Below are positions 1-40,490 of a DNA stretch of 64,000 nucleotides, in pieces. Made by a program: the position numbers and the translations under genes. Below the pieces are notes generated by a model. It was given only the letters and a program-made list of their open reading frames with translations. It was not told where the DNA came from and did not search any database. The stretch's first letter is position 1. Each line of letters starts with the position of its first letter. This stretch comes from an uncultured bacterium (GTDB lineage: Bacteria > Omnitrophota > Omnitrophia > Omnitrophales > Abzuiibacteriaceae), in NCBI GenBank assembly GCA_964387845.1, contig CAYLXA010000010.1:32001-96000 (forward strand), given 5' to 3'.

Positions 1-318
1 TCCTTGTTGAACACGCGGCGCAATCACAGCGCGAAAACCGTATTGCGCAATCGCCCATACGGCATGCTCGCGGCTGGATCCGCAGCCGAAATTATTGCGC
101 GCGACTAAAATCTCCGCGCCTTTGAATCGCGGCTGATTGAGCACAAATTCGGGGTTCGGTTTTCCGTCCGGCAAATAGCGCCAATCAAAAAACAAACTCT
201 CGCCGAATCCGGTCCGCTTGATGGATTTTAAAAATTGTTTCGGAATGATCGCATCCGTATCGATGTTGGCGCGGTCAAGCGTCGCGATTAATCCTTTAAA
301 TGTTTTGAATGCTTCCAT
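1..318 (-). CDS. leuD: 3-isopropylmalate dehydratase small subunit LeuD, partial (runs off the 5' edge of the window)
   Basis: The reverse complement of 1-318 translates to [31 protein letters not shown]...[26 protein letters not shown], which carries canonical LeuD motifs. The ATG lies at 316-318. It is missing from the ORF track only because it is truncated by the window edge. Confidence 0.85.
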
Positions 319-441
319 TGTCAAATTTCAATATCAAATATCAAAATTCAAAATAATTTCAAATTTCTAAAATTCAAATAATTTTTATTGGAAAATTTGA
401 ATTTAGAATTTGTTTTGAGTTTTGAAATTTGAGATTTGAAT
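319..441. repeat. AT-rich intergenic region between leuC and leuD built from TCAAA(T/A) units on the left and TTGAA(T/A) units on the right, forming a long imperfect palindrome
   Basis: The left half (tcaaatttcaatatcaaatatcaaaattcaaaataatttcaaatttctaaaattcaaat) and the right half (ttgaatttagaatttgttttgagttttgaaatttgagatttgaattt) are approximate reverse complements of each other. Confidence 0.55.
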
Positions 442-1839
442 TTACCTCCAAGTTCTAATATCCACAAAATGTCCTTCAACCGCTGCGGCGGCGGCCATTT
501 CGGGGCTCACCAAATGGGTCCTGCCGCCTTTTCCTTGCCGGCCTTCGAAATTCCGGTTCGAAGTCGACGCTGCGCGCTCTCCGGGCTTTAATTGATCCGG
601 ATTCATCGCGAGACACATGCTGCAGCCCGATTGGCGCCATTCGCATCCCGCGGCTTTAAAAATTTCATGAAGTCTCTCGGATTCCGCCTGCTTCAACACC
701 TGTTGAGATCCCGGAACCACCAAAACGCGCACGCCTTTGGCGACTTTGCGGCCCTTTAAATATCGGGCGGCGTTTCTCAGGTCTTCAATGCGCGCATTTG
801 TGCAGCTTCCTATAAAGACCGTGTCCACCTTAATATCGGTAATCGGCGTTCCCGGTTTCAAACCCATATATTGAAGCGCAAATTCGACATCTTTTTTGTT
901 AATTCCAGGCACTTTATCCGGCTCCGGCACGCGACCCGAGACATCTGTCACCATTCCGGGGCTTGTGCCCCAGGTGACTTGCGGCGCAATCTGAGAAACA
1001 TCAATTACGAGCTCGCGGTCAAACTTAGCGCCCGAATCCGTCGGGAGTGTTTTCCAAAATTTGACTGACTTATCGAATTCCGCGCCTTTCGGCGCAAACG
1101 GCCTGTTGCCTGCGGCAATATATTGAAACGTTGTGTCATCCGGCGCAATCATACCGGCGCGTGCGCCGCCTTCGATGGACATATTGCAGATCGTCATACG
1201 CGCTTCCATGGATAACGAACGGATCGCAGCGCCCATATATTCCAAAACATAGCCCGTTCCACCGGCGGTTCCAATTTGGCCGATGAGTTTTAAAATCATA
1301 TCTTTAGAAGTCACGTTCGGCTTCAAACTGCCTTTAAACTCTACTTTGAAAGTTTTGGGCTTTTTTTGCGGCAAACATTGCGTTGCGAGTACGTGCTCCA
1401 CTTCCGACGTTCCGATGCCGAGCGCGAAAGTACCAAACGCGCCGTGCGTTGAGGTATGTGAATCGCCGCAAACAATCGTGAGGCCGGGCAGCGTGATCCC
1501 GAGCTCCGGGCCGATGATGTGCACAATTCCCTGCTCGTCGCTATTTAAATCGTAGAGTTTAATGCCAAACTCTTTGCAATTTTGCGTGAGGGCTTCGATT
1601 TGCGCCTTCGAGACGGCGTCTTTTATATTGAAGCGGTCCTCGGTGGGCACATTGTGGTCCATCGTCGCAAACGTCAGCTTTGGCTGGCGGACTTTGCGGT
1701 TTGACAGGCGGAGACCTTCAAATGCCTGAGGGCTTGTGACCTCATGGATCAGATGGCGGTCGATATAAAGGATGCTGGTACCGTCCGGCAAGGTTTTTAC
1801 CAGATGATGGTCCCATATCTTTTCGAATAAGGTTTTCAT
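442..1839 (-). CDS. leuC: 3-isopropylmalate dehydratase large subunit LeuC
   Basis: The 465-aa product starts [14 protein letters not shown] and carries the aconitase-family Fe-S cluster motifs (GDSHT, GSCTNAR). This is a typical LeuC. Confidence 0.95.
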
Positions 1840-1891
1840 AGGGCGAGCATTATAGCGGGATTATCGCAAAATTGGAAGAGCCGCTCGCATT

Positions 1892-4800
1892 TTAGGCCGC
1901 TGTTAATTGGGCCCAAGCTGCGCGAAGTTCAGAACGTAAAGATTCGGCGATTTGGTCGACGCCAAAGCGTGTGGTCAATTGATCGGGTGATTCCAGGCGA
2001 GATTCAAACTGAACATTTCGGAGTTCAGAGCGCAATTGATCCGCAAAATGCTCGTCTTTACCTTCCACACCATAAAGCACGAATTTAATATTATTTCCGG
2101 TGATTCCTTTGAGAACGGTTGTCGCATTTGTTCGTGTCACAATGTTCACAGAGTGGTTTGCATTATCATCTCTGAAGAAATGATTTTTCAAGAACGATGC
2201 CTGCATTTGTGTGCCGCCGAAGATAACAACAGGCCCTGATTTTCTCATGACCGTTGCTCCGGCATACGCAATCGGCAGATTTTCCAACATGCCCGGTGCG
2301 ACACCATAAACAATGATTGTTTGATTATCATCGGTTTCAATTGCTTCGCTTTGTCCAGCTGTTAAAGAAACTGCTTCTTGAATTGAAGAATGAGGCAAAG
2401 TCGCATACGCTTCTTCAAATTGATTCGCCGAATTTGCCGCCCGGCCCTTAATTTCCGGCGCAATAACACTTTCCCAAGTTAAAGATTCAAATGAAACGTC
2501 AGATATATTATTTTCCTGATTTATAACGCGTAACTCGGACGAAGGCGGGATTACCAGCTTCGCCAAAGCAGCGCTTTTCGGGTCAGAAAAGCGCAATTTC
2601 GATCGACTTGAACGCCTCCTTTTTTCGCGACTAACACCTGTCTCTGTCTTTAAACGGCGCTGATGGCCACCTCTCGGAAAAACTTTTTTATTATAGGTGG
2701 GCGGCTCTTTTGTCCTAGAAAGTTTTCTATCTGGCCTTGGCTTGCCGCGATGGCTAAGCGCTCCGTAGTTTTGCCAATCATCAAGAACTCCGACTTTCGA
2801 ACCGCGGCGTCCTTGCACAAATTTGTAAATATTGCCCTTGCCATCAATATAAACAAATCTCAAGTCCCATCCATTTATAACTCTATAAACACGATCTGGA
2901 AGGCCATCTCCATCCAATTCAATCAATCTCCATTTGTGCCGGCTGTTTTCCTGAACATATACTTCAATTCTGCCAAATATTTGATGATTAAAATGATGGT
3001 AACCAATCGCTTTAAGCGGCTCCCATTGTCCATATTCATCAGGCTGATTATTCTTGACCCAAACTTCATCTGCAAAGAATTTTTCCCGCAAATTGACAAG
3101 CCTCAGATTTCCTGTGAAACCTGATTCAATAGTGCGATTGGTTTGATAGGCAGCCTGGGCAATCCATGCCATAATTACCTTTGCAATTTTTTGTTTGGAC
3201 CATTTATGATAGTAGTTAGCTGAGAAATTATCGAATGGCTTGAATTGACTTGTGATCAGTTTGTTTGAATCGAGATAAAAGCCTACAGAACCTGTACTTT
3301 CATATCCGTAACCCTCATCAAAACCGACTAGAATTTGATAATTTTGTCTACCTGCGCGAACAATCTGCAACAATACCGGATCTCGCGGAGAATAAGGATT
3401 ATTTAGTTTAACGGTATATGTTTTCCATTTTGGATTATCAAAATTTGGAATAAAATCTGCGTTCGACTTCGCGCGCAATTCGGACTTTGCGTCATCGGGA
3501 CGCGAATGATTGGCCATAGGTGCTTTTTCTACAATTTTATTATCACTATTTTCTATATTGACAGGGCCCCGTTTATTTGATATAAGAAAGTCCTCTTCGC
3601 GCACAAACTGAAAAGGAGAATTAAGAATGGTAGAACGTGAATTCACCGCAAGAGAAGTCGGTGCGCTTGTTGAATCTTTCCGGAATGACATTTCCGCCAT
3701 TGCAGAAGGCGTTAGCGGGTTGGCTGTCCGAATGGATCGGGTAGAAGCCAGACTCGCAGTGGTAGAGGTTAAATTAACGTCTGTTGAAGACGCTGTTCGC
3801 GTGGCGGTTCCCAACCACGAATCCCGCATCACCAAACTAGAATCCAAAGTTTTCGGCCGCTGATTATCTTTGCGCAGCTCGGACTTCAGAGAGGCGATTC
3901 CAAAAAACAATGCCTGGCCCTGTTCATTTTTAATTGTTTTCATCACTTGCAGACCACCATCAATAAACTTTTGAAAAATGGTTTCTGGCATTCGATGGTC
4001 TGCCCTGATTCGGCCCGTTGGACTATCCCAAGCTCCCTCAAGCTGATTATAAAAAGTTGTGGCAAAAATTCCTTTTGGTTTAAGAATACGCCTAATGCTT
4101 CGCGCGGCCCGGCTGGCCCGCTCAGTAGACCAGATTTCGATTCCAGGCTTCAATTGAAGAATGGGCATCCCCTCTTCCCTGACATAATCCCACACTGCTT
4201 CATCATCTAAATTACGGTAATGTTGCTTTGTTTCAGCGTGATTGGTAATCAATGCCCAATATAAAACCGAAGAAGCAATGATTAAATCAAATTGCTGGTC
4301 AGCAAATTGACTTAAATCCAAAATATCTGCCTGAACCGCACTCGCCCCGAACCGTTCTTTCGCAAATTGAACCGCATTCTCGTCGATATCAGCCACAATA
4401 ACATCAGCCCCTTTTTGCCGAAGCCATTCAAGGATACTTCCGTCTCTGGCAGTTCCAATTTCAAGCACCCGCTTGCCTTTCCAATAATCCTTTTTCAAAC
4501 TGTCGATTTCTCTCAATCCATGCAAAATGAGTGGTGCTGTACCGCTAGAAATCATTACATCTTCTTCGCCGCGCAGCTCGGCTCTGGCTTTCCGATTAAT
4601 ATCTGACCCGGGCACTTCATTGTGAGCCGGAGCGGACTTCGCGGCGCCTTGGTTCTCTTGCAAATCAATCGATGACATGAAAATATCCCGCCGCGATGTG
4701 ACATAGCCGGCAACATGCATGGTAGACCCTTCGACCGAAAGAGCGAGCGGCAAGTAGTCTTTGGGAAAGTGAAGCAGGCCATTTTCAAATTGCGTTTGAT

Positions 4801-7800
4801 CAATTTGATTTGAGCGGCGGTCAAGTGCAACAATCGCTGAGCCCACTTCAGGATCTTCCCTATTTAACCGATGTGGTGCAACATGCAGGTATGCGGTATT
4901 TCCAAAAATAGAGTTCGGCCAATCTTGCGTAAAAAGTTGATAGGGTTTTTGATTGATCGTCACTTCTCCTAATAAATTGCCCGCTTGATAAACAAGCTCT
5001 CCTGTCTTGATATCCACAACACCTATACCGCTCAAAGGCGCATGCGAATCAAGAATTAAATGATCCTGATTCGAGCGTAAATATCTCACATATTGAAATA
5101 ATTTCGCATTACGTTCATAAACACCTTCTTTTAGTTTGTCAGTACGCAAATGACCGCTGACAGGATCCAAGGCATAAACTTTAGAGGAGCCCAATCCTGT
5201 GAAAAATAAAACGCCTTGAGTGAAGGTGATAAGCGGCGTTGAAACTATTTCATCGGGAAATACTTGCTTCAAATCGAGAACGCCTTTTTCAAATTTGGCA
5301 TGATCTGGCTTTCCGTCACTCATCCGAAACGCGTGAATATAAGCCTGGCCTTTCCGGGCTCTGTCATCAACCGGATGGACATCTGTCTTTCGATAATAAG
5401 CAGCATACAAAGTTTGTCCATCTTCGCTCACGGCCAACGAGTTAATCCGTGCTTCCGGGTCAATCTTTTTAACCTCGTCCGACAAATTTAAACGTCCGTT
5501 CGACCACTTTTCAGACATTAATGCTTTGCGATCTAAATCAACTGCTAAAATGTCACCCGTGAACGAAGTCAAAATGTAAGCCGCATTTCCTCTGGCCACC
5601 ATTTCACGAGGCATGTCCTGAGACGAGATATGAAAGAATCTCTCATTATTTTGCCGCAACTCGGAGCGGGTTTCGGGCTTCGCTTCCATTAGTTTTTTAA
5701 TTTGAGCGCGTGCTTCTGCAATCATTTGATCCGTAATTTCACCCTGCTCTTTGCCGAGCGCCCCCAAGATTTTCGAATCTAAATTGCTTTTTTGGCTGAG
5801 TTCTAAACTGTCATAACCGATGTCTTTTTTCAATTGAACGATCTTTTTATAATTAGAAAAGGTGCGAAGAAAATTAACAACCGGATCCAGCGAGACATGC
5901 TGCCCATCGTCAGTTGCATAAGATCCCAGCAAATCCAGAGTGGTTGTTGCAATCATCAATTCAATTGCCTGGTTAAATTGATCTTCGCCGCGGATGCCTG
6001 CCTGCTCAAATTCCTGCCTTAATTTCTCCAATTGTTGAGCACGATGAATCGAAAACGCAAAAATGTGATGTTTAATGATTAATTTCAAAAGCGCATTGCT
6101 TGAAACGTCCATTTCACCGAAGTGAATATGATTGTCACTTAACACGCGAAATGATTCGAGTTCATGGCCCGGAAATGAATGGTCTCCATTCTCTTTGAAC
6201 TGCATTTTGGTTTTCTTGCCGATATCATGAAGCACGATAAATGCTTCCAATATCGCGCGGTCTTTTGCATTCCAATCCTTAATCAGATTGATCGCATCTT
6301 TGGGCGCTGTAGTGTTTCGGTCAATTTGATTGAGTGCCGAGAGAATGGCTTGTAAATGGTCCTGAAGTTTAGCATTCTGGCCGCCTTCCCTATGAAACAG
6401 GCTGTGATAATGAGGCGTTTCCAAAAAATCCGCATATTGATCCGGAATGCCAGATAACTGTTTCACCAATTCATCCAATGCTGAAGCCGGCCCATACTGG
6501 CGCAGCTCGGAGCGCTGTTCTTTTATCCATTGCACCAAACGCCGATAGTCAGTAACGCGAAGCGACATGCGGGAATTTCCGGGATTCGGCGCTATGATAA
6601 ACTGGTCGGCGGTTCCTCGAACCTTTTGGTACACAAAGACGAGAAACATACCGTAAAACCCCTGTGATTCCGGAAGGCCCCGGGCAACCCAATCCGCTTC
6701 AAGAATTGACCTGAGGACATTTGCCTTGATGGTCAACTCGTCCGGTTCCTTGTTTGCATCTAATTGTGCGATGACGGATTGAAAATATTGCAGAACTACC
6801 GCGTTTCTCCGTTGACTTTGAAGATCATTCCCCAATCCTTCAAAAAGTTTTTGCGTAAAGCGCTGCGCATTACCCATTTGATTTAAATCACGGACCAATG
6901 CCCGATATTCGCGCCGGTAAGCAAGCCATTCGTCTTCCAAATGCATATCAACGGAGCGCACAACCTTCTTAAATGCTTCCGGACTTGTTATCAATGGCTC
7001 CATGTCTGATTTGCCATGCAATTGCTTAACAAAATCAATCAGATATTTCATGCCCTCATCTGCTTCTCTGGCCAATGCGGCATTGATCAAGTGCGTACCT
7101 TCATGGATCATGACATATTTAATAATCAGAGGTGGAAAATGAAGCGCGAAGTCACGATTGATAGTCACATGAGTCACGCTTCCGTCTAATGAAGTTTTTA
7201 TACGTGCATACGAATGCCTCTGCAAAGAGCTTAATAAAGTGTCATCGAGAACGGGATTTTTTTTAAATGCCTCGATAAATTTTAATGCTGTTTTTTGATC
7301 GTCTAGGTTTGAAATTTCGGAAGCAATTTTTTCAAGGCGGTCCACAACCGCTTGAATTTCAGGGAGAAATTCGGGAGTTCTGATCCACCGCAAGATAGGC
7401 CATGCAGCAAATAAAGCGGTTGTTCCTGCACCGATTATTATTTGCCTGCGGCTTGGCAGCCAAAATTTCTTAGCAGGCTCTTCGCTTTTTACTCCCTGAC
7501 GCCGCTCCTTATTTTTTCGTCCGTTCTCACTTGCGCGCAGCTCGGCGCGGGAATTTCCGCTTGGAAGCTTGATGTTAAATTCTGCGGCTGCGTGGGCCAG
7601 CGCACGGTCGCGGTGCTCTCCATACATCAAAGCTTCCCGATGATTGTTTAGGCCTTTTTTCTTCCGAATTCGCTTTGCTTTATGCACAGAAGCCCTGGTT
7701 GAGTACTTCAAAGAAAGCGGCGCTGCCGGAAGCTGAATGCCGAACCGTTTCGCAGCATTGTAAAGCGCCCTGTCCCGATGCTTGCCTCGGGTTAACTCGC

Positions 7801-10800
7801 GGGCATGACTTTTCCATTTCTTCTTCTCGCGTTTTTTTAACTCCCTGCGAACAGATCCTTCGGTTGGATACTCAAAGGGCACACCTCTTTTTCTTAATTC
7901 GGAACGATGATTAGAAACATGAACTTTTGAGCGAACGGGAAGCTGCTCTGATAAAACCGCTTCGAGCATTTGATCTTTAATCCACCAATGAATCGGGCCA
8001 TTTTGTTTTGTCCAATCACGAATCGCATAACCCACTTCCTTTTGAGCTCGAATAAATAAACTTTCCATATTCCCATTACCATTTTGTGCCCGCGCGATCT
8101 GCTCGGCGAGACCTCGATAAATTCTGGCCGGCTCGAACTGATTGCGCCCATTAGAAGATTGATTTTTCTGAAACGTCGAAACCGCTTCCTCAATGCCGAT
8201 ATGTGTCAACGCATTCTTGGCATTAAAAGATGCGGCGATTCGATCTATTTGCCTTTTCATTTTTCTAAAATATTTCTTCCACGAAACAAAAGCCGGTTTT
8301 TCTCCGGCGCGCCGGATATCGAGCCCCAGCAAGATGCGATTTTGAATCAATTCTCCTTCTGGAATTTGATCTAAATAAAGGCCGTATCGCCCCTCAAAAT
8401 TCTTTTCGTATTCAATTAATTCATCGCGCCAATCTTCAAGTTGTTTGGCATCAACGGCACCGATTAAATTTAGTTCATAAATCAGATGAAGAGCGCGGCC
8501 TGCAAGGCCCAACCACCTGACGGCGTGAAGTAATTCGGAAGATTGGGTGTGTTTTTTCGCTTTATTGAGCGAGCTTCGGATCTGAATTTTCAGAATTCTG
8601 GATTTTCTTTGGCGCCTGTCAAATTCTTCAAACTCATCTTGGCTCATAGTTGGCTCAATAATTAGTTTGGCATTTTTAAATAACTGCTTGAGCGCTCGAT
8701 CTTGATGCAAACCCCTCTCATCCGTCCATTGTTGCCATGTCTGCTCGGAGGATTTTGTCGGTGAAAGCGGCTTTCTATCCCGTCCGGCTTTCGTTATTTT
8801 AAGGTTTCCGGTCTCAGCCCAATAACCCAGCCGTTTTGCTTCAAGTTGAATCAGATATCGCTCGGTTCCCTCAAGCGGACCCGGAACAAATTTTTGAACA
8901 CCAACTAAACCACGGTCCGTCAGATAAGCACTATAAACAAAATCAACCAAATGGCCTTTTCGATCGGTCTTTGGATTGGTGCTATACAAATCGATCCGCT
9001 TTGTAAAAGTCCGGCCATCTTGCTTTTCTTGAACATTGCGAAACACCATGAAAAATCTTCGCGGCTTTTCCGGAGTACCTACGCCCGCCCACTTAGGCCG
9101 GAGCGGTATGAAAAACCTTGTGTTTTTTGGCTTTAAAAATATTCCTGTTTGATGGCGGTTATGGTTGTGGCTATGCGTTATGGTTTTTGGCTCAATGGGA
9201 AGCGGTTCCTCTCCCGTCTTGATCCACTGTTGTATGCGTCTTTGAAATTCTTCTTCATCTTTTAGAAATTGCTTGGTTTCCAAATCCACGTAAAACACGA
9301 CCTGATGCTCCGGTTTATTCGAAACTTTTCCGCGTGCGATTCTCCTCACCCGCCAATAAACATTCTGCTTGAATGAGAAAACGGTAATTTCTAGGTCATC
9401 CCGATTTGAAAAATATTGTGAGGGCAGATAGAGCCGGCGCATGTTTTTTGCTTTTGGTAAGGGGAAAAACACGGTATTGGCATATTTGCCTTTTCGGACA
9501 TGTTTTAAAACAGCCTCTTTCAAAATTCTAACGGCAGGAGGGCCGGATTCGCGTTGAAAAGTTAAATGAAAAAGTTCCTTGCGGACCTGTTCAAACTGAT
9601 CAGGAAAAATAATTCCTTGCTTAGGTTGAAAACCGGTTAACGCATCAAATTCGAGCGTTCCCACTGCAGGCCTGAAAGGAAGTAAATGAACCTGCATTTG
9701 CGGACGGCGTTTGTCATCCGCGGAATCCCGGGTCCATATGACGCGCGGTTCTCCGGTCGGATATTGAAAAAGAGCCCACTTAACCGGCACTTTTGCTTCA
9801 TGCAATTGGCCGTTTCGAAGATAAGAAAAGGATGTAATGAAAGGCGGTCGTCTTTTTTGTAGTCGCTGAAAAATACTATCCTGGTATGCATGAAGGCGCC
9901 GCGGGATCATAAAGCCGGAGGGTTGCGCCCGTTGGCCCATTAAAAAATCCCGTAAAAGCTGAGAACGCGAGCTATCGCGAACTTTGTTTGTGCGAAAATG
10001 GTCGGCCAATTCCATTTCCCGAATCAAAAACCGGTAACTCTCCTGAGGATCCACTTGAATTCCCAAACCTGCTTCGCCTCCGGTTGTGTTACCAATTTTC
10101 TGAGTTTGTGATGAAACATAAGAAATAAAACGGCCTTCCCCTGCCGCGGCCAATAATTTCTGTTCATCCCAATTGACCATGAATAAGCGCGGATCATCCG
10201 TTTTGAGGAGCGCTGAATGGCTTTCCGGTGACAGAAGCCAAGCACGCTCCAAAAGATCTGCCCGATCTAATAGTGCCGCTGTTGAAATCCGGCCAAGGCG
10301 AATAAAATCTGAAACAGTTATCTGATGCGCAAATAACTGACTCTCACGATATTGGCGTTCTTCATTCGAAAGCGAAGCCAGATAAGGAAGCGCGTCTGTT
10401 TGAGAAAGATCTTCTTCCTTTGAAATACGGCGCGACGAAGATGGGCGTGGCTTCGGAACGATTTGCATTGTTTCGCTATTTTGACGCAGCTCGGAGCGGG
10501 ATTGAGACTGTTTTTGGCGAATTAATTTCACGGCTTCACGAACGCTAACACCCTTGCCTCGCATATCCATGTAATCAAATGCTAAATCTGCGTTTCCGTT
10601 GCTTAATTTCCAGGCAATAAACGCATTAATCACCGCATACGGATACATCCATCCTTGTCCTTTGTCTGTTAATGGATTCGGATCAAAGACACCGAAATTT
10701 TGCCGAGTCATTCCAATGGCATTTTCTTCTGCATATTCGTAAGCTTTATCGCCGGCTTCCCTGAGACTTCGGTCCAATTCTGCAGGCAATTGATCAACAT

Positions 10801-13800
10801 ACATCATCATTACTTCCCCGATACTGGTACCTTTATTGAAATTTCCTTTTACATATTTTTCAAAGAAAGATTGTTTTAATATATTGAGATCCCCTTTACT
10901 TTTTTGCAAGATTCTTAATGCGGCATAACCTTCGGCAAGTAACGCATCGTTATCAATATATTTCAAACCAGATCTAAGTTTTTTTCCAAATTTATGCGTC
11001 AATTCGTGAGCAATTAGAAGACGGAGTCCCCACCCAGAGCCCATGCGTTTTAATTCGTTAGGATTAATTCGAATTCCATAATCAAATCCCGTGGCAAGCG
11101 TGTCGGGAAGCATTGCCACAGCAGTCGGTTTATTTTTAATCCAGATTGTTACGCCGACAGCAGCCAGACCGATAGCAGCAAAACCAAATAAAAAATCACG
11201 ACGTGTTAGTTTTTGTTTCGATTTAGTTTTATTTTTTCTTTCTAAGAAATATTTGAGGGAAAATATTGAGAAAATTCCGCTCAACAATGATAAGAAAATG
11301 GATAAGAATGTTAGGTATGCTTTTGGCTGCTCGATTGCAACCCCTATTGAGTCTGTTAAACGATTAATCAATTCTTCTTTTTGTTGCACAGATAAATCAA
11401 CGGCGTAACGATTTATAAAAAACTCAACTTCTTCCCGTACAATTTTTCTCTGTTCTTGGTCTAATTGAAAAACAAACGGTTTGTTCGATTCGCGCAACTC
11501 GGAACGGGATTTTCTCAAATCTATGTCAAGTAAATGCTGCAAAGCTAATCTCACCTTCTCTTCTTCCATGCCATCCAACTCTTGAAGTTGCCGGTCTGTA
11601 AATGCTTGGATCAAGCGTGCCATGGCTATGGACCGTGTAGAAAATTGATGCAGGTAATCATCAACGATCTGTTTTTGTTTTGCGCTTACTTGTTCCATCG
11701 AAATTTCGTTACGAGGAGGAAGGTTAAATGGATTTGGCGAACTATCATTTTGATTTAAATCATCGTAAGCTTGCCACAGAGCTCCGTTCTTACCGTAAAA
11801 ATATTTGCCCCACAATTGCATTCTGATATCTGAAACTTCCTTCCATTCTTTGTCGGCATCATTGATATCGGTTTCAAAAACGTATGGCGCTTTTTCCTCA
11901 TTAATTCCAATCGACGCCTCAAGCGGACCAAAAATAAGCGCCCCAGATTCAGAATCGACAGTGTTAAGGCCTTCTTGAACATAGCCATGCAGGGTATGAT
12001 TCATGAGCCAATTGAAATAATCATGCACAACTTGATTAAATCTCTTCGCACTCATTGATCTTCCATTCCAATGCTCTGCGAGAAGCCTGTCAAAAGCGCT
12101 TTTCTCTCTCGACGCGCCATTTTCTATAGGTTCTGAACGCAGCTCGGCCCTTGAGCCGAGCGGGCTCAAGGACGGCTTCGGCATCGCAGCTCGTTGCGGC
12201 AAAGTCCGAGCCGCCCTTTGTTGCAGCAGTTCCGACTTCGAATCGGCTGGAGTCGAAGTACGGACAGTCCTCAACTCCGCTCGAGCTGAGGACTCAGCGT
12301 GGACGGGGTTTAAATTAGGTGCTTTTTTTACAATTTTATTATCGCTATTTTTTATATTGACAAAGCCCTGATTGTTTGATATAAAAAAAGTCCCTTCGCG
12401 CGCAAACTTTAGGAAAGAAGAGAAAATACGATGACCAAAATTCCAAAGCCCGGCTCCGAATATTCTGAAGAGCGTGAATTCCGCGTCATTTTGGAGCATC
12501 TTGAAAGCCAGTTCCGTACTTTTGGTGAGGGGATGAACCGGATGGAACAAAAACTTCAAAAACTGGACGGCATTGATCGCAGACTGACTAGCGTAGAAGA
12601 AGATGTTGGATTGATTAAGGTCAATCTTAAACAAATTAATATTGATCTTAGAGAAGTCAGAGGTGATATCATGGTTCTGAAAACTGACGTTAGAGTCTTG
12701 AAAAGCGCTTTCAAACCATTCACCGCCCAAGTTTCCGATCACGAGCACCGGATTTCCGCTCTTGAGCGTTCCCGTTAAACGCAATTCCGATCGACTTAAA
12801 GGTAGCTGCAATACCTTCGTGATATGATTTTCAACCCATGGCCATAATTCTTTTGTGATAGATTTGAAATAATCGGAAGAAACTTGATACGGGCGCGCGC
12901 CAAACTGGATCTGATTGGCCAAATCAACCAAATCTATTAAGTGCCGCGCATCGGCTCCGATGAGATAGAAAAGAAATAAGTATTCCTGGGCAATTGTCAA
13001 ACCACCTTTATTTTGCCGACTAATGACCAGGAATGCGTGATATCTCAAAGATTCTTCCAAGATCACCTCTGGATTCCCTTTTGAATCAAACAAGCGAGCT
13101 TGTTTGATCCTTTGATTGAACAATGCCGTGTTGCGCTTTTGCTTTAATGCGTTTTCTATAAACAACGGGTGATACAAATCTTGATTGTATGCCCAGTGCA
13201 GAAAACGGAATTGGCTGAAACTCTCGTAAAATTCGGATGAAATATTTTCAGCAGCTAATCTTGAGATATCGGATAAATGTTTAACTGCAAAATTGGGAAT
13301 TCCTGATTTTTGAGGCCACCTTCTTTCTCCTAACGGAATTTTCTGAAATTCTTGCATAACACCTTGTAATTCTGAAACATTTTTCGGCATCCAATTTTTT
13401 GATTTTGACAAATAATGAACCCCATAAGCTTCCCTGACAATGACAGATGCCAAGTTTTCAACAAAATAATCCTCGGCATATGGAAATTGGTTAATCAATT
13501 TCACGGAATCAAAAAAAGATTTCACGTTGATTTCTAAATCGATTTTTCCGTTCTCATCAATTGTTTTTTGAAAATGAATCCCCAAATTAGCTGCTTCCTG
13601 CGGCAGCAGTTTAGCCTGTTTGACTAATTCGGAGTAATTCTTAAGAATGTCAGTATTCGGATATCCTTTGGCAATTAACCAGTCGATTGTTTTTTGAATA
13701 GCGTTTTGAACACTTGCTAAATCGGCACGCGAAAGTTGAATCTCGTCCATCAGGGATTTATTTTGTTTAAAAGATTTTCGAACGGCGTAAATCGTACCTG

Positions 13801-14236
13801 CTATCAATGAACCGCTGACGGTTAAGCCTAGCCCATATTTAATAACGGTTCTTCGTGATAAATCCGTTCCTCCTTTTGTCTCTTTTGTTTTATCTTTTTC
13901 TTTTGTTCTCAGCTCGGACTTCTTTTGAGTATTTCGTATCTCGTGAAACGTATCTCGGTGCAGCGGCTCAGCGTGGTTTGCTTCGGGATTCGTGACCCGC
14001 GTATCGTGTTTCGCAACCGATTCACGATTCACGAACGACGATTCACTGGATTGATTTTGCACCAAACTTCTCAACTCGGAAAGTGCGGCGGGAGAATTGG
14101 CGGTGAGGCGCGGGACGTTCAGCGACGGAACGGAGGAAGCATAGGAATTAGGAATGGACGGAGATAGTCCGATGGTGTTCTGGATTGAAAAGCAGAAGAT
14201 GATCAGAATCGCGGTAATTTTAAGGTATTGCTTCAA
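1892..14236 (-). CDS. Giant (4114 aa) modular membrane-anchored polyprotein. It has an N-terminal signal peptide, several TM helices, a SAM-methyltransferase-like module, an HD-domain module, two HExxH zincin-like motifs and a propeller-like region, all separated by a recurring [RK][SA]ELR motif
   Basis: The reading frame stays open for 12,345 nt, which cannot happen by chance. The start is probably TTG at 14236, preceded by AGGAAA. The N-terminus MKQYLKITAILIIFCFSIQNTIG is signal-peptide-like. Motifs seen: VLEIGTARDG...DLIIASSVLYW (class I SAM-MTase), FIVLHDIGKK...HEL...KHH (HD), AHELTHKFG and IHEGTHLIN (HExxH). Seventeen [S/A]ELR motifs are spread through the protein. Confidence 0.75.
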   Translation of the reverse strand: MKQYLKITAILIIFCFSIQNTIGLSPSIPNSYASSVPSLNVPRLTANSPAALSELRSLVQNQSSESSFVNRESVAKHDTRVTNPEANHAEPLHRDTFHEIRNTQKKSELRTKEKDKTKETKGGTDLSRRTVIKYGLGLTVSGSLIAGTIYAVRKSFKQNKSLMDEIQLSRADLASVQNAIQKTIDWLIAKGYPNTDILKNYSELVKQAKLLPQEAANLGIHFQKTIDENGKIDLEINVKSFFDSVKLINQFPYAEDYFVENLASVIVREAYGVHYLSKSKNWMPKNVSELQGVMQEFQKIPLGERRWPQKSGIPNFAVKHLSDISRLAAENISSEFYESFSQFRFLHWAYNQDLYHPLFIENALKQKRNTALFNQRIKQARLFDSKGNPEVILEESLRYHAFLVISRQNKGGLTIAQEYLFLFYLIGADARHLIDLVDLANQIQFGARPYQVSSDYFKSITKELWPWVENHITKVLQLPLSRSELRLTGTLKSGNPVLVIGNLGGEWFESAFQDSNVSFQNHDITSDFSKININLFKIDLNQSNIFFYASQSAINAVQFLKFLFHPVHPLTKSTELAFKMLQNDAEFTLFRIFGAGLWNFGHRIFSSFLKFAREGTFFISNNQGFVNIKNSDNKIVKKAPNLNPVHAESSARAELRTVRTSTPADSKSELLQQRAARTLPQRAAMPKPSLSPLGSRAELRSEPIENGASREKSAFDRLLAEHWNGRSMSAKRFNQVVHDYFNWLMNHTLHGYVQEGLNTVDSESGALIFGPLEASIGINEEKAPYVFETDINDADKEWKEVSDIRMQLWGKYFYGKNGALWQAYDDLNQNDSSPNPFNLPPRNEISMEQVSAKQKQIVDDYLHQFSTRSIAMARLIQAFTDRQLQELDGMEEEKVRLALQHLLDIDLRKSRSELRESNKPFVFQLDQEQRKIVREEVEFFINRYAVDLSVQQKEELINRLTDSIGVAIEQPKAYLTFLSIFLSLLSGIFSIFSLKYFLERKNKTKSKQKLTRRDFLFGFAAIGLAAVGVTIWIKNKPTAVAMLPDTLATGFDYGIRINPNELKRMGSGWGLRLLIAHELTHKFGKKLRSGLKYIDNDALLAEGYAALRILQKSKGDLNILKQSFFEKYVKGNFNKGTSIGEVMMMYVDQLPAELDRSLREAGDKAYEYAEENAIGMTRQNFGVFDPNPLTDKGQGWMYPYAVINAFIAWKLSNGNADLAFDYMDMRGKGVSVREAVKLIRQKQSQSRSELRQNSETMQIVPKPRPSSSRRISKEEDLSQTDALPYLASLSNEERQYRESQLFAHQITVSDFIRLGRISTAALLDRADLLERAWLLSPESHSALLKTDDPRLFMVNWDEQKLLAAAGEGRFISYVSSQTQKIGNTTGGEAGLGIQVDPQESYRFLIREMELADHFRTNKVRDSSRSQLLRDFLMGQRAQPSGFMIPRRLHAYQDSIFQRLQKRRPPFITSFSYLRNGQLHEAKVPVKWALFQYPTGEPRVIWTRDSADDKRRPQMQVHLLPFRPAVGTLEFDALTGFQPKQGIIFPDQFEQVRKELFHLTFQRESGPPAVRILKEAVLKHVRKGKYANTVFFPLPKAKNMRRLYLPSQYFSNRDDLEITVFSFKQNVYWRVRRIARGKVSNKPEHQVVFYVDLETKQFLKDEEEFQRRIQQWIKTGEEPLPIEPKTITHSHNHNRHQTGIFLKPKNTRFFIPLRPKWAGVGTPEKPRRFFMVFRNVQEKQDGRTFTKRIDLYSTNPKTDRKGHLVDFVYSAYLTDRGLVGVQKFVPGPLEGTERYLIQLEAKRLGYWAETGNLKITKAGRDRKPLSPTKSSEQTWQQWTDERGLHQDRALKQLFKNAKLIIEPTMSQDEFEEFDRRQRKSRILKIQIRSSLNKAKKHTQSSELLHAVRWLGLAGRALHLIYELNLIGAVDAKQLEDWRDELIEYEKNFEGRYGLYLDQIPEGELIQNRILLGLDIRRAGEKPAFVSWKKYFRKMKRQIDRIAASFNAKNALTHIGIEEAVSTFQKNQSSNGRNQFEPARIYRGLAEQIARAQNGNGNMESLFIRAQKEVGYAIRDWTKQNGPIHWWIKDQMLEAVLSEQLPVRSKVHVSNHRSELRKRGVPFEYPTEGSVRRELKKREKKKWKSHARELTRGKHRDRALYNAAKRFGIQLPAAPLSLKYSTRASVHKAKRIRKKKGLNNHREALMYGEHRDRALAHAAAEFNIKLPSGNSRAELRASENGRKNKERRQGVKSEEPAKKFWLPSRRQIIIGAGTTALFAAWPILRWIRTPEFLPEIQAVVDRLEKIASEISNLDDQKTALKFIEAFKKNPVLDDTLLSSLQRHSYARIKTSLDGSVTHVTINRDFALHFPPLIIKYVMIHEGTHLINAALAREADEGMKYLIDFVKQLHGKSDMEPLITSPEAFKKVVRSVDMHLEDEWLAYRREYRALVRDLNQMGNAQRFTQKLFEGLGNDLQSQRRNAVVLQYFQSVIAQLDANKEPDELTIKANVLRSILEADWVARGLPESQGFYGMFLVFVYQKVRGTADQFIIAPNPGNSRMSLRVTDYRRLVQWIKEQRSELRQYGPASALDELVKQLSGIPDQYADFLETPHYHSLFHREGGQNAKLQDHLQAILSALNQIDRNTTAPKDAINLIKDWNAKDRAILEAFIVLHDIGKKTKMQFKENGDHSFPGHELESFRVLSDNHIHFGEMDVSSNALLKLIIKHHIFAFSIHRAQQLEKLRQEFEQAGIRGEDQFNQAIELMIATTTLDLLGSYATDDGQHVSLDPVVNFLRTFSNYKKIVQLKKDIGYDSLELSQKSNLDSKILGALGKEQGEITDQMIAEARAQIKKLMEAKPETRSELRQNNERFFHISSQDMPREMVARGNAAYILTSFTGDILAVDLDRKALMSEKWSNGRLNLSDEVKKIDPEARINSLAVSEDGQTLYAAYYRKTDVHPVDDRARKGQAYIHAFRMSDGKPDHAKFEKGVLDLKQVFPDEIVSTPLITFTQGVLFFTGLGSSKVYALDPVSGHLRTDKLKEGVYERNAKLFQYVRYLRSNQDHLILDSHAPLSGIGVVDIKTGELVYQAGNLLGEVTINQKPYQLFTQDWPNSIFGNTAYLHVAPHRLNREDPEVGSAIVALDRRSNQIDQTQFENGLLHFPKDYLPLALSVEGSTMHVAGYVTSRRDIFMSSIDLQENQGAAKSAPAHNEVPGSDINRKARAELRGEEDVMISSGTAPLILHGLREIDSLKKDYWKGKRVLEIGTARDGSILEWLRQKGADVIVADIDENAVQFAKERFGASAVQADILDLSQFADQQFDLIIASSVLYWALITNHAETKQHYRNLDDEAVWDYVREEGMPILQLKPGIEIWSTERASRAARSIRRILKPKGIFATTFYNQLEGAWDSPTGRIRADHRMPETIFQKFIDGGLQVMKTIKNEQGQALFFGIASLKSELRKDNQRPKTLDSSLVMRDSWLGTATRTASSTDVNLTSTTASLASTRSIRTANPLTPSAMAEMSFRKDSTSAPTSLAVNSRSTILNSPFQFVREEDFLISNKRGPVNIENSDNKIVEKAPMANHSRPDDAKSELRAKSNADFIPNFDNPKWKTYTVKLNNPYSPRDPVLLQIVRAGRQNYQILVGFDEGYGYESTGSVGFYLDSNKLITSQFKPFDNFSANYYHKWSKQKIAKVIMAWIAQAAYQTNRTIESGFTGNLRLVNLREKFFADEVWVKNNQPDEYGQWEPLKAIGYHHFNHQIFGRIEVYVQENSRHKWRLIELDGDGLPDRVYRVINGWDLRFVYIDGKGNIYKFVQGRRGSKVGVLDDWQNYGALSHRGKPRPDRKLSRTKEPPTYNKKVFPRGGHQRRLKTETGVSREKRRRSSRSKLRFSDPKSAALAKLVIPPSSELRVINQENNISDVSFESLTWESVIAPEIKGRAANSANQFEEAYATLPHSSIQEAVSLTAGQSEAIETDDNQTIIVYGVAPGMLENLPIAYAGATVMRKSGPVVIFGGTQMQASFLKNHFFRDDNANHSVNIVTRTNATTVLKGITGNNIKFVLYGVEGKDEHFADQLRSELRNVQFESRLESPDQLTTRFGVDQIAESLRSELRAAWAQLTAA
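3558..3586 (+). promoter_or_regulatory. Consensus sigma70 promoter (TTGACA, 17-nt spacer, TATAAG) driving the nested antisense small ORF A
   Basis: TTGACA lies at 3558-3563, the spacer gggccccgtttatttga is 17 nt, and TATAAG lies at 3581-3586. An AAGGAG RBS sits at 3612-3617 and the ATG at 3627. An AT-rich UP-like tract lies upstream. Confidence 0.55.
3627..3863 (+). CDS. Small ORF A (78 aa) nested antisense inside the giant gene; paralog of ORF B
   Basis: It has a perfect promoter and RBS. The protein MVEREFTAREVGALVESFRNDISAIAEGVSG...LTSVEDAV...NHESRITKLESKVFGR shares EREF, ESFR, LTSVE(D/E)D/A and HE.RI..LE with ORF B. The stop codon abuts an RSELR-encoding motif of the giant gene. Confidence 0.5.
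   Translation: MVEREFTAREVGALVESFRNDISAIAEGVSGLAVRMDRVEARLAVVEVKLTSVEDAVRVAVPNHESRITKLESKVFGR
4215..4540 (-). other. SAM-dependent methyltransferase-like module within the giant ORF
   Basis: Encodes GKRVLEIGTARDGSILEWLRQKGADVIVADIDENAVQFAKERFG...FDLIIASSVLYW, matching Rossmann motif I and post-I of class I methyltransferases. Confidence 0.6.
5900..6420 (-). other. HD-domain (metal-dependent phosphohydrolase) module within the giant ORF
   Basis: The H...HD...H...H pattern is present as LQDHLQA, FIVLHDIGKK, FPGHELES and KHHIF. Confidence 0.55.
7091..7115 (-). other. HExxH motif (IHEGTHLIN), candidate zincin metallopeptidase site in the giant ORF
   Basis: The motif is read directly from the translation. 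No further family assignment is possible without an HMM search. Confidence 0.4.
10988..11020 (-). other. HExxH motif (LLIAHELTHKFGKK), candidate zincin metallopeptidase site in the giant ORF
   Basis: The motif is read directly from the translation and resembles ImmA/IrrE- or SprT-like minimal zincins. Confidence 0.4.
12357..12385 (+). promoter_or_regulatory. Consensus sigma70 promoter (TTGACA, 17-nt spacer, TATAAA) driving the nested antisense small ORF B
   Basis: TTGACA lies at 12357-12362, the 17-nt spacer is aagccctgattgtttga, and TATAAA lies at 12380-12385. An AGGAAAGAAGAG RBS precedes the ATG at 12431. About 36 of 40 nt upstream are identical to copy A (tacaattttattatc[a/g]ctatttt[c/t]tatattgaca). 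Confidence 0.55.
12431..12778 (+). CDS. Small ORF B (115 aa) nested antisense inside the giant gene; paralog of ORF A
   Basis: The protein is MTKIPKPGSEYSEEREFRVILEHLESQFRTFGEGMNRMEQKL...LTSVEEDV...DHEHRISALERSR. It is coiled-coil-like and homologous to ORF A. The stop codon abuts an SELR-encoding motif on the opposite strand. Confidence 0.5.
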   Translation: MTKIPKPGSEYSEEREFRVILEHLESQFRTFGEGMNRMEQKLQKLDGIDRRLTSVEEDVGLIKVNLKQINIDLREVRGDIMVLKTDVRVLKSAFKPFTAQVSDHEHRISALERSR

Positions 14237-40167: not shown

Positions 40168-40185
40168 TAACACTCTTTCCTCTTG

Positions 40186-40215
40186 GATTTCCCTGAGTTC
40201 GGAAGCTGACTGCCA
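40186..40215 (-). promoter_or_regulatory. Conserved 5'-leader element of tpsA (TCAGCTTCCGAACTCAGGGAAATCC on the mRNA), copy 1
   Basis: Near-identical to 45449-45477 upstream of the second tpsA. It lies 20-50 nt upstream of the start codon. Confidence 0.45.
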
Positions 40216-40490
40216 TGACGGTTGCAACCGTTTTAGGCTCTTGAGTTTTGCCTCATTCTACGCTCAGTCGCTTACGCGCTGGGCTTCGAAGAGCTCTACG
40301 AAGCCAAGCCGCGAAGGACTTGGCGAAGTAGAGGCCTTACTCTTTCGAGTAATTTGCCTCCGCCATACAGCGTAGCGGATCCGCCACGCTTTGTGGCGGA
40401 CTTTCGTTCAGAGATAAGATGATAAAACTAAAAAAAATTTTACCATATTGAGAAGATATTGCAAAAATTAAGATAAAAAACAGATAAAAC

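Follow-up and report, generated by a model that had tools for sequence, protein, structure and literature searches.

The window, the whole 64-kb stretch of DNA that was analysed, carries on its minus strand a giant multi-module open reading frame (ORF) within which two small genes, A and B, run in the opposite direction. Each small gene lies behind a putative promoter and leader, and the three together are called a cassette here. The features of the locus, in window coordinates, are as follows.

1892-14236, minus strand: giant multi-module ORF, 4114 aa, open across the small gene A region
3473-3484, minus strand: linker KSELR closing the cassette A module (C-terminal side in the sense of the giant gene)
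3485-3871, minus strand: shadow, or spacer, module of the giant ORF, 129 codons, antisense of gene A with its promoter and untranslated region (UTR)
3517-3609, plus strand: putative promoter/5'UTR block, 93 nt (AT-rich upstream part, core promoter and start of the leader)
3558-3563, plus strand: predicted -35 hexamer TTGACA, kept in homologous loci
3564-3580, plus strand: spacer of 17 nt between -35 and -10
3578-3586, plus strand: predicted extended -10, TGaTATAAG (hexamer TATAAG at 3581-3586)
3613-3618, plus strand: Shine-Dalgarno sequence AAGGAG, 8 nt ahead of the ATG at 3627
3627-3863, plus strand: small gene A, 78 aa, wholly inside the giant ORF
3872-3883, minus strand: linker KSELR opening the cassette A module, starting 8 nt after the gene A stop
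12269-12280, minus strand: linker RAELR closing the cassette B module
12316-12408, plus strand: second copy of the promoter/5'UTR block, 85% identical to 3517-3609
12357-12362 and 12377-12385, plus strand: predicted -35 (TTGACA) and extended -10 (TGaTATAAA) of cassette B
12431-12778, plus strand: small gene B, 115 aa, a paralogue of A, over which the giant ORF reads the in-register antisense frame
12779-12790, minus strand: linker RSELR opening the cassette B module, directly abutting the gene B stop

The giant ORF encodes methyltransferase and HD domains and internal TAT-like signals, each in separate modules, and 18 in-frame copies of a linker motif, [RK/x][SA]ELR, divide it into these modules. 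An independent Logan assembly, identical to window positions 336-11839, has the giant ORF called as a single gene. The first-pass annotation had treated the linker as a DNA 14-mer, but what is conserved is the peptide: the serine, leucine and arginine codons vary synonymously between copies and the motif differs by lineage (variants include RSELR, RAEVR, RAETR and GARLA), so that the linker is selected as a peptide, and selection at this level implies that the giant frame is translated. The same synonymous variation led us to reject the idea that the linker acts at the DNA or RNA level. Internal starts of translation behind each linker were rejected as well, as module starts have no consistent methionine or Shine-Dalgarno sequence, and so was an alternative genetic code, given that all three stop codons already count as stops and neighbouring genes end normally. 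Our inference is that the linkers serve for processing or as flexible joints; cleavage is a conjecture for which there are no protein data. A literature search for 'RSELR' matched only the R package varSelRF. Long spurious antisense ORFs are present elsewhere in the window.

Much of the first-pass description of cassette A can be read directly from the sequence, namely the AAGGAG ribosome binding site, the 78-codon ORF inside the giant ORF, the uninterrupted passage of the minus-strand frame, and the fit of the cassette to exactly one inter-motif module between two in-frame linkers. The motif reported to follow the gene A stop immediately as RSELR is in fact KSELR and begins 8 nt past the stop. 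A direct repeat matching at 13 of 15 nt (3473-3487 and 3872-3886) surrounds the cassette; it consists of the linker motif, which is found on either side of every module. The promoter had been described as a perfect sigma-70 promoter, and although the TTGACA, the 17-nt spacer and the TATAAG are all present, the -10 matches the consensus at only 5 of 6 positions, with G in place of the final T. The -10 of cassette B, TATAAA, likewise matches at 5 of 6 positions and lacks the final T. This base is usually invariant in -10 hexamers, and because it is missing a generic promoter scanner did not list the hexamers of the window. Cassette A has the TG of an extended -10, and we infer, without RNA data, a sigma-70-type promoter with an extended -10, a -35 that matches the consensus and AT-rich DNA upstream. 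The combination TTGACA-N14-TGN-TATAA occurs twice in the 64 kb, both times at the cassettes, against an expectation of 0.04.

The giant-frame peptide across cassette A is rich in Ser, Thr, Ala and Arg, as the first-pass annotation had noted in describing an S/T/A-rich stretch (S 15.5% and T 10.9%, compared with 7.3% and 4.4% in the whole giant protein). It reads GPVNIENSDNKIVEKAP across the promoter and includes TASSTDVNLTSTTASLASTR, and as a protein query this shadow peptide gave no match. Folding of the 3' flanks yielded no intrinsic terminator after small ORF A or B, folding of the leaders yielded no structured 5' leader in either cassette (z-scores were positive), and a search of Rfam returned nothing credible at either cassette.

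The second copy that had been placed at 12315-12800 exists as a cassette, but only its promoter block is a near copy, with 85% identity over 93 nt; the ORF itself is a paralogue whose protein shares 29% amino acid identity with protein A. Gene B lies 8.8 kb from gene A, and these are the only two cassette copies in 64 kb. Neither small protein had an exact match in the public protein collection, since the small genes are hidden from gene calling by the giant ORF. Gene callers suppress nested small genes in this way, and the family is therefore under-counted.

The nested arrangement recurs. Among 17 distinct homologous loci, 12 have the small gene antisense within a long open minus-strand frame whose length ranges from 374 to more than 4069 codons, with the qualification that several of these calls come from short contigs on which the long frame runs off the contig end. 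At L008, L011, L012, L016 and L017 the homologue stands alone outside any giant ORF, and the antisense frames of some stand-alone homologues contain stops. A promoter of the form TTGACA-N17-TAnAnT, mostly with TGn, is found 50-80 nt 5' of the start codon at L002, L005, L007, L011, L016, L017 and L018; the TGn precedes the -10 at L005, L007, L011, L016, L017 and L018. Our list of conserved promoters, defined by the -35, the N17 spacer and a position 50-80 nt upstream, also takes in both window copies, which unlike the homologous loci lack the final T of the -10. The promoter of L009 is farther upstream, at about 160 nt, and precedes another small ORF that comes before the gene; the -35 of L013 is TGGACA. 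The linker is present on both sides of the shadow peptide in window cassettes A and B, L003, L004, L007a, L007b and L018a, and on its upstream side in L002, L010, L013 and L014. Several cassette copies per giant ORF occur in L007, L015 and L018. L003 and L018 have a homologous N-terminal module (23% identity) with the cassette at the same place, at about aa 745-850, and because they share both module and cassette position the nested arrangement is old. Searched by tblastn against all loci, the giant protein of the window matched only shadows of the small gene, so that its flanking modules have no synteny to those loci. The long-term stability of the window's own cassette insertions has accordingly not been shown, their flanking modules having no homologues in other loci.

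This distribution could also arise from a mobile, semi-autonomous promoter-gene cassette that inserts into the linker, duplicating it, and survives only where it is in frame and stop-free, the nesting then being no more than an insertion preference. The direct repeat around cassette A, both flanks of which are the rarer K-type linker, is what such a cassette might leave, but it is weak evidence for mobility because linkers flank every module anyway. The 85% identity of the promoter blocks despite 29% identity of the ORFs, the unrelated flanking modules among most loci and the multiple copies in L007, L015 and L018 would also fit. Against mobility, there are no terminal inverted repeats, no recombinase was noticed beside the window cassettes (a dedicated recombinase search was not made), the 64 kb hold just two copies with highly diverged ORFs, and the common cassette position beside the 23%-identity module of L003 and L018 argues for old vertical inheritance. 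Viral contigs gave no match. We regard a mobile cassette as unlikely on this balance. A phage origin is not supported either, the scan of viral contigs having found no relative.

The small protein belongs to a conserved family. Homologues share 44-64% identity, and two of them, P0001 (64%) and P0002 (49%), have been called as independent genes of 76-79 aa. A search of protein sets with the small protein had been proposed in the first-pass annotation, and a profile search of 1.84 billion representatives with the family gave 74 hits among cluster representatives at a threshold of E<=1e-10, almost all with lengths of 72-110 aa. The search for related loci used A-type sequences. Homologues were found at 3 Omnitrophota MAG loci and 13 metagenome loci. 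The closest genome loci are all Candidatus Omnitrophica/Omnitrophota MAGs, from which an Omnitrophota origin is inferred for the window. The family alignment has the conserved pattern F[TS]xxEVGxLxE...DAVRVAIP...RxxxLExK. A comparison of constraint on the two strands among homologues, also proposed at that stage, revealed purifying selection on the plus frame: sense pN/pS is 0.22-0.35 in the closest pairs and falls below that of the overlapping antisense frame in 17/17 pairs. The values themselves are rough, because pS is close to saturation (0.5-0.85).

An AF2 model of small protein A consists of one helix, residues 8-76, with a mean pLDDT of 89.8. Pfam gave only weak matches (ZapB, the XhlA N-terminal region, DUF7310 and DUF1664; E 1e-3 to 1e-5), the best being DUF7310, whose 18.6 bits fall short of the cut-off of 40, and NCBIfam gave no match to the window protein. 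These four families resemble the small protein in size, all-helical prediction and heptad-like sequence, but every match is below its curated threshold and places protein A outside them; XhlA moreover has a transmembrane segment, which protein A lacks. On this comparative evidence small ORF A, like its paralogue B, is a genuine gene of a conserved, unannotated Omnitrophota family whose proteins measure about 75-110 aa, predicted to be of the single-helix coiled-coil type.

The first-pass annotation had left two possibilities side by side, a true overlapping gene and an internal promoter producing an antisense RNA, and the overlapping gene is favoured by the protein conservation, pN/pS, codon usage and stand-alone homologues. 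If the promoter drove only a regulatory transcript against the giant mRNA, the 78-codon ORF would be incidental. A strong conserved promoter does point head-on inside the giant gene, its transcript could in the absence of a terminator extend into the antisense of the methyltransferase module, and this is the sole cassette type found in the giant ORFs, which would fit a dedicated relationship. We nevertheless regard this reading as quite improbable: the ORF is conserved as protein across lineages under the selection described above and follows a Shine-Dalgarno sequence, its family has 74 representatives of matching length and includes members outside giant ORFs at five loci (L008, L011, L012, L016 and L017), and the region has no Rfam match. 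The data neither demonstrate nor rule out that, in addition, the giant gene is affected by antisense RNA or transcriptional interference.

The openness of the giant frame has to be judged against chance, since the giant gene might be an annotation artefact, several genes with the small genes in the gaps between them and a minus frame open by luck. For gene A such luck would be ordinary. Synonymous resampling gave a probability of 0.335 that the giant frame is open over gene A, and in some homologues the corresponding value for the wobble-aligned antisense frame reaches 1.0. The family is nearly without Tyr, His and Gln, and because these residues are almost absent the antisense frame with its wobble position aligned to the sense wobble is nearly stop-free. 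Other long spurious antisense ORFs in the window point the same way, and taken by itself the open frame over ORF A is not noteworthy. What speaks for selection on the giant frame is instead the UTRs, gene B and recurrence. Over gene B, which is read in register, the probability is 0.008 with 4.2 stops expected, and all TTA, CTA and TCA codons have been removed by synonymous choice. The AT-rich promoter/UTR is stop-free in the giant frame as well (P 0.036 for A and 0.031 for B), and nine such regions across the loci give a combined P of about 3e-9; combined values are optimistic because the loci are not phylogenetically independent. Ordinary genes of the window provide an empirical background of 1-7%: stretches of the length of A are antisense-open in 6.6% of cases in the wobble-aligned frame, and stretches of the length of B in 1.2% in the in-register frame. 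In addition, each cassette fits exactly into one in-frame module with the linker peptide at its ends, and 12/17 loci are alike. The stop-free passage of the giant frame through the cassettes is not chance, and an artefact of this kind is very improbable. No amino-acid-level constraint on the giant frame was detected across the cassettes; beyond remaining open and in frame, it shows no constraint there.

Codon usage distinguishes ORF A from the ordinary modules of the giant ORF. The codon-usage log-odds of ORF A are +0.23 in the plus frame and about 0 in the giant frame, for which the ordinary modules give +0.13 to +0.38. When a sliding scan of codon usage was run over about 70 kb of giant ORFs from 8 loci, the 11 A/B cassettes were the only segments flagged as coding on the opposite strand. 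That only the giant frame is functional and the plus-strand ORF its by-product is barely tenable, for although the giant frame of gene B scores as well as the plus frame (0.205 versus 0.174), the plus frame has the lower pN/pS in every pair, the minus frames of non-nested homologues contain stops, the minus peptide over A is of low complexity and has a codon score near 0, promoter and Shine-Dalgarno sequence are both conserved, and the family is confidently predicted as a helix.

The best explanation appears to be dual use of the DNA, in which a real small gene lies reversed inside a giant ORF whose frame threads through its antisense strand. We give this a probability of roughly 70%. The evidence for it is wholly comparative and statistical, and no transcript, transcription start site (TSS), ribosome or peptide evidence exists for either strand; promoter activity and translation of both strands are inferred. 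The dual coding is asymmetric, the giant frame being constrained only to stay open and in frame. The small gene would set the sequence of the cassette DNA, and the giant gene would ask only for a length that is a multiple of three and the absence of a stop codon. Its frame over the cassette would thus be a junk spacer peptide, probably disordered, bracketed by the same linker (R/K-S/A-E-L-R) as separates all other modules. We infer that the spacer could be cut out or tolerated at these linkers with neighbouring modules unharmed.

A bolder version would make the A/B cassettes dedicated, co-evolving control modules of Omnitrophota polyprotein genes. The head-on promoters and the obligatory mRNA duplex would then gate or split giant-gene expression, the small protein and the downstream giant-gene modules would be expressed mutually exclusively, and the shadow peptide would be discarded by the same protease as frees the remaining modules at R-[SA]-E-[LV]-R. 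Cross-talk between the convergent transcription units and proteolytic excision at the linkers are both inferred, and we hold this proposal only tentatively, as possible but rather unlikely. Were it true, the linker would be the first cleavage code to be defined for giant proteins of bacteria and the small gene the first cellular gene kept long-term as an antisense module of a polyprotein.

The arrangement has partial parallels. In the excludon of Listeria an mRNA doubles as antisense RNA to a gene on the opposite strand, and similarly the mRNA of the small gene would necessarily be fully complementary to part of the giant mRNA, with its promoter directed head-on into the giant gene. The excludon overlap usually involves the UTRs of neighbouring genes, not a complete gene within another ORF. 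Viral and other polyproteins resemble the giant ORF in having unrelated modules in one frame with a short conserved peptide between them, and signal-peptide-like segments come after linkers in the giant ORF; in contrast to polyproteins, no protease or cleavage has been shown for it. We know of no polyprotein reported to have an antisense cellular gene as a module.

Whether bacteria have long antisense overlapping genes is still a matter of dispute, and most of those proposed are young ORFs of one species. The window case differs in that the nested gene is old and conserved, with a conserved promoter, and in that the nesting recurs in many lineages. Both strands carry an independent statistical signature, purifying selection on one and, on the other, stop avoidance reaching over promoter and leader. 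Long antisense overlapping genes inside annotated genes have been described in Pseudomonas aeruginosa (PMC8850804) and E. coli O157:H7 (PMC9927249) and have been reviewed (PMC7457138). Like the window pair, the genes in the first two reports are ORFs fully nested on the opposite strand with their own promoter and ribosome binding site and an argument from purifying selection. In those systems the embedded ORF is young, taxonomically restricted and overprinted on an old mother gene, whereas here the embedded gene represents an old, wide family that also occurs stand-alone, and the giant frame is the overprinting partner. The overlap of the window pair further takes in promoter and leader and recurs in many lineages (11 cassettes in 8 giant ORFs). 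The earlier examples are backed by RNA-seq and Ribo-seq, data that the window pair lacks. The locus offers a clean natural system for studying how two reading frames share DNA, in which the wobble-aligned register and a protein poor in Tyr, His and Gln make the sharing nearly cost-free. The cassette, set off by a short lineage-specific linker peptide, behaves like any other of the many modules.

Giant proteins of Omnitrophota have been described by West-Roberts et al. 2023 (bioRxiv 10.1101/2023.11.21.568195), and a later study (bioRxiv 10.64898/2026.06.07.730766) includes a 'multi-enzyme metabolic cluster' class. The window ORF resembles these proteins in phylum, in combining unrelated enzyme domains in one ORF and in suspected post-translational cleavage, and that literature counts methyltransferase (PF08241) and HD domains as typical content; at 4114 aa it is below their threshold of at least 10,000 aa. 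Term searches found no mention of antisense or nested genes in either paper, and none of a linker or motif in bioRxiv 10.64898/2026.06.07.730766. West-Roberts et al. 2023 (bioRxiv 10.1101/2023.11.21.568195) state that the cleavage points of giant proteins are unknown. The linker peptide is a concrete candidate for such points, with no protease or cleavage shown as yet. Other giant ORFs of the related loci contain CsrA, glycogen phosphorylase and HEAT domains.

The small gene on the plus strand of the giant ORF is best explained as a true antisense gene lying in an open giant frame, a reading to which we assign a probability of roughly 0.7; no expression data are available, and translation of both strands is inferred. 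The elements of this arrangement are as follows.

3558-3563, plus strand: -35 element TTGACA of cassette A, the promoter, 5'UTR and small ORF taken together (sequence reading of 3400-4000)
17 nt, plus strand: spacer of cassette A, last bases TGa (sequence reading)
3581-3586, plus strand: -10 element TATAAG of cassette A (sequence reading)
3613-3618, plus strand: Shine-Dalgarno sequence AAGGAG of cassette A (sequence reading)
ATG 3627 to TGA 3861-3863, plus strand: small gene A, 78 aa (ORF call)
1892-14236, minus strand: giant ORF, 4114 aa, enclosing small gene A (ORF call)
3473-3484 and 3872-3883, minus strand: KSELR linkers flanking cassette A (giant-frame motif scan)
3517-3609 (A) and 12316-12408 (B), plus strand: promoter/5'UTR blocks, 93 nt, 85% identity
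12431-12778, plus strand: small gene B, 115 aa (ORF downstream of the 93-nt block)

Sequence reading and ORF calls thus agree with the first-pass annotation on TTGACA, the 17-nt spacer, AAGGAG and a 78-aa ORF within the open giant frame. The promoter had been called perfect; this is accurate for TTGACA and the spacer, but TATAAG lacks the consensus final T, and for this reason a generic promoter scanner did not list it; the -10 is nonetheless of the extended type. The pattern TTGACA-N14-TGN-TATAA occurs at only two sites in 64 kb, both at cassettes (0.04 expected). Cassette A was also said to fill exactly one inter-motif module, and the positions of the two KSELR linkers, 129 codons apart, bear this out. 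An RSELR-encoding 14-mer had been placed immediately after the stop codon; a linker does adjoin gene A, but it is KSELR and starts 8 nt past the stop (in B no nucleotides separate the stop codon from the linker). Synonymous variation is seen at the Ser, Glu, Leu and Arg codons of the linker, e.g. TCCGAGCTGCGC vs TCTGAACTCCGA vs TCCGAATTAAGA, so that what recurs is a peptide motif rather than a DNA 14-mer. The second copy reported at 12315-12800 is a real cassette with the shared block; its ORF has just 29% protein identity to A, though an A-family profile still detects it (E 4e-7). The sharp boundaries of the 93-nt block beside such divergent ORFs suggest that the promoter was duplicated recently, that gene conversion has acted, or that the two copies share a regulator site. 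An independent Logan assembly (identical across 336-11839) likewise has the giant ORF as a single 4114-residue gene.

Neither small protein is recorded as a called gene in exact-sequence look-ups; homologues of 79 aa (P0001, 64% identity) and 76 aa (P0002, 49%) are called as independent genes. Homology searching, which the first-pass annotation had proposed with the 78-aa protein against metagenomic protein sets, uncovered a family: run against 1.84 billion representative proteins, a profile gave 74 matches at E<=1e-10 and 388 at E<=1e-3, the best of them nearly all 72-110 aa, and genome and metagenome scans found 16 further loci, the three with a named organism all being Candidatus Omnitrophica/Omnitrophota MAGs; the taxonomic placement of the window itself rests on these relatives and is an inference. 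The family alignment has a visible conserved signature, and no Pfam or NCBIfam model reached threshold for the A-family protein. AlphaFold predicts a single continuous helix for protein A (residues 8-76, mean pLDDT 89.8), and on this model it is a small coiled-coil-type protein. The promoter recurs at eight loci as TTGACA-N17-TAnAnT, mostly with TGn and often with an AT-rich tract upstream (L002, L005, L007, L009, L011, L016, L017, L018), and L013 carries a TGGACA variant. Protein-level conservation, together with stand-alone homologues, contradicts the first-pass alternative of a non-coding antisense RNA alone.

The small ORF might instead be merely a shadow of the giant frame. Comparison of the strands in homologues, also proposed earlier, gave sense-frame pN/pS of 0.22-0.35 for the closest pairs and values below those of the overlapping antisense frame in 17/17 pairs, although pS is close to saturation and the values are rough. 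Codon-usage log-odds, trained on the other genes of the window, are +0.23 over A in the plus frame vs about 0 in the giant frame; across ordinary modules the values are +0.13 to +0.38 for the giant frame and negative for every plus frame. In five loci (L008, L011, L012, L016, L017) the gene stands free of any giant ORF, and two of these have stops in the matching antisense frame. These three lines of evidence contradict the shadow explanation. A and B are therefore read as bona fide genes with their own promoters and conserved expression signals, promoter activity being inferred from sequence.

Whether the giant frame is open by chance cannot be judged from ORF A alone. The third positions of the giant codons coincide there with those of the small gene, and in this wobble-aligned register antisense stops arise only at xxT|TAx, xxC|TAx and xxT|CAx, so that a Tyr, His or Gln codon is needed; protein A lacks Tyr and Gln and has a single His, and the frame stays open in 33.5% of synonymous resamplings, which proves nothing. 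Chance is contradicted by other evidence. For gene B the giant ORF uses the in-register antisense frame, in which TTA, CTA and TCA codons are stops, and about 4.2 stops are expected by resampling with none observed (P(open) 0.008). The AT-rich promoter/leader segments encode no part of the small proteins; the giant frame crosses them without a stop (P 0.036 and 0.031), and they hold 2-7 stops in the other two minus frames. Among ordinary genes of the window, the relevant antisense register is open over cassette length in only 6.6% of stretches for A and 1.2% for B. Twelve of 17 distinct loci (L006 counted as a duplicate of L003; several of these related loci are short contigs) are nested in a minus-strand open frame of 374 to >4069 codons, with A-type genes always wobble-aligned, and all nine promoter/intergenic segments across loci are stop-free (combined P ~3e-9, optimistic since the loci are not independent). 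Taken together, gene B, the UTRs and the multi-locus statistics favour, of the two first-pass readings, that of a true overlapping antisense gene, and indicate that the giant frame is kept stop-free and in frame through the whole cassette. An unbiased sliding scan of ~70 kb of giant ORFs in eight loci found 11 regions with the plus strand more coding than the giant frame, and 11/11 were A/B family genes; the association with giant ORFs is specific to this family and recurrent.

Unrelated modules, SAM-methyltransferase and HD domains among them, follow one another in the giant ORF, which has 18 [SA]ELR or SKLR motifs all in one frame; the linker peptide that bounds the cassette also bounds every other module. 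The separator is R/K-S/A-E-L-R in the window, whereas other lineages have RAEVR, RRAETR, R[SA]E[VLM]R or, with 14 occurrences in L007, GARLA; such an in-frame dividing peptide is also found in L003, L004, L007, L010, L014 and L018. Linkers stand on both sides of the shadow peptide, the giant-frame reading of the cassette, in window A and B, L003, L004, L007a, L007b and L018a, and on the N-terminal side in L002, L010, L013 and L014. In L008 the B-A operon, which is not nested, lies directly against the 3' end of a multi-module ORF (1630 aa) whose linkers are RSEVR. Domains in related giant ORFs are CsrA (two copies), HEAT repeats and part of a glycogen phosphorylase. The linker is a candidate cleavage or linker code of Omnitrophota giant proteins, cleavage being conjecture.

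As an account of origin, a mobile cassette that inserts at linker sites is still possible. A K-type 13/15-nt direct repeat flanks A, the promoter blocks are far more alike than the ORFs beside them, and flanks are unrelated from locus to locus; against this, no recombinase was seen adjoining cassettes (without a dedicated search), and there are no inverted repeats or near-identical copies. L003 and L018 moreover share a homologous N-terminal module (23% identity) with the cassette at the same place, ~residue 745-850, which makes the nested state old and points to long-term vertical retention.

Under the antisense-gene reading, both strands would be expressed, and the giant protein would hold a junk spacer of 129 (A) or 166 (B) residues that may be excised or tolerated because the flanking linkers would serve as processing or flexible sites. 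Its amino-acid composition, which leaves the wobble-aligned antisense frame almost stop-free, may be why the family is found here. Folding of the 3' flanks of both cassettes revealed no terminator following the small ORF; with a head-on promoter and a small mRNA necessarily antisense to the giant mRNA, regulatory interference with the giant gene is plausible, in the absence of expression data. Another family member lies directly ahead of the A-type gene in L008, L012 and L015 (B-type in L008 and L012), and as the genes are often adjacent our best guess, a speculation, is that A and B are partners in an abundant cytoplasmic oligomer.

The closest known kind of arrangement is the antisense overlapping pairs of Pseudomonas and enterohaemorrhagic E. 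coli (PMC8850804, PMC9927249; review PMC7457138). Unlike in those pairs, the nested gene here is ancient and conserved while the host frame merely passes through, the overlap covers promoter and leader, and the nesting is a linker-delimited module of a polyprotein-like ORF, recurrent across lineages. The giant ORF matches the 'multi-enzyme' class of very long Omnitrophota proteins in a 2026 preprint (bioRxiv 10.64898/2026.06.07.730766). West-Roberts et al. (bioRxiv 10.1101/2023.11.21.568195) suggest that giant proteins are cleaved, at points they describe as unknown; the module chain fits this suggestion, and the candidate linker code bears on those points. In term searches neither source mentioned antisense or nested genes, and the 2026 preprint mentioned neither a linker nor a motif.

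Several further features were observed. Three TAT-like signal/anchor segments were seen by eye in the giant ORF at ~aa 125-150, 1005-1030 and 2255-2280 (SRRTVIKYGLGL, TRRDFLFGFAAIG and SRRQIIIGAGT; the middle one a sub-threshold Pfam TAT_signal match), two of them shortly after a linker motif, as if modules had once been exported as separate proteins, or come to be. In L003, two domains of CsrA, a small RNA-binding regulator, lie between two linker motifs (~aa 2446-2668, Pfam E 1e-22) inside a polyprotein-like giant ORF of >2816 aa. Beside cassette B, at 12137-12318, a short 44-codon spacer separates two AELR linkers; it holds a KSELL motif, which is degenerate, and on its plus strand an inverted KSE-like motif (12202-12216) and a 55-aa ORF (12151-12318). 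A second large ORF (34969-40227, minus strand, 1752 aa) has only one SELR motif, near its N-terminus, and encloses plus-strand ORFs of 219-224 aa at 35090-35764 and 36161-36820. In L002, a G+C-rich hairpin followed by TTTT (1343-1380), terminator-like, lies between two tandem small genes with the minus-strand frame still open. In L008 a further TATATTGACA...TGnTAnAnT promoter (7652-7684, plus strand) faces away from the 1630-aa ORF, whose 5' end it overlaps. L016 has, at 94-1371 (plus strand), a transposase-like ORF (426 codons between stops), ISL3-like by eye only, just upstream of a non-nested family member.
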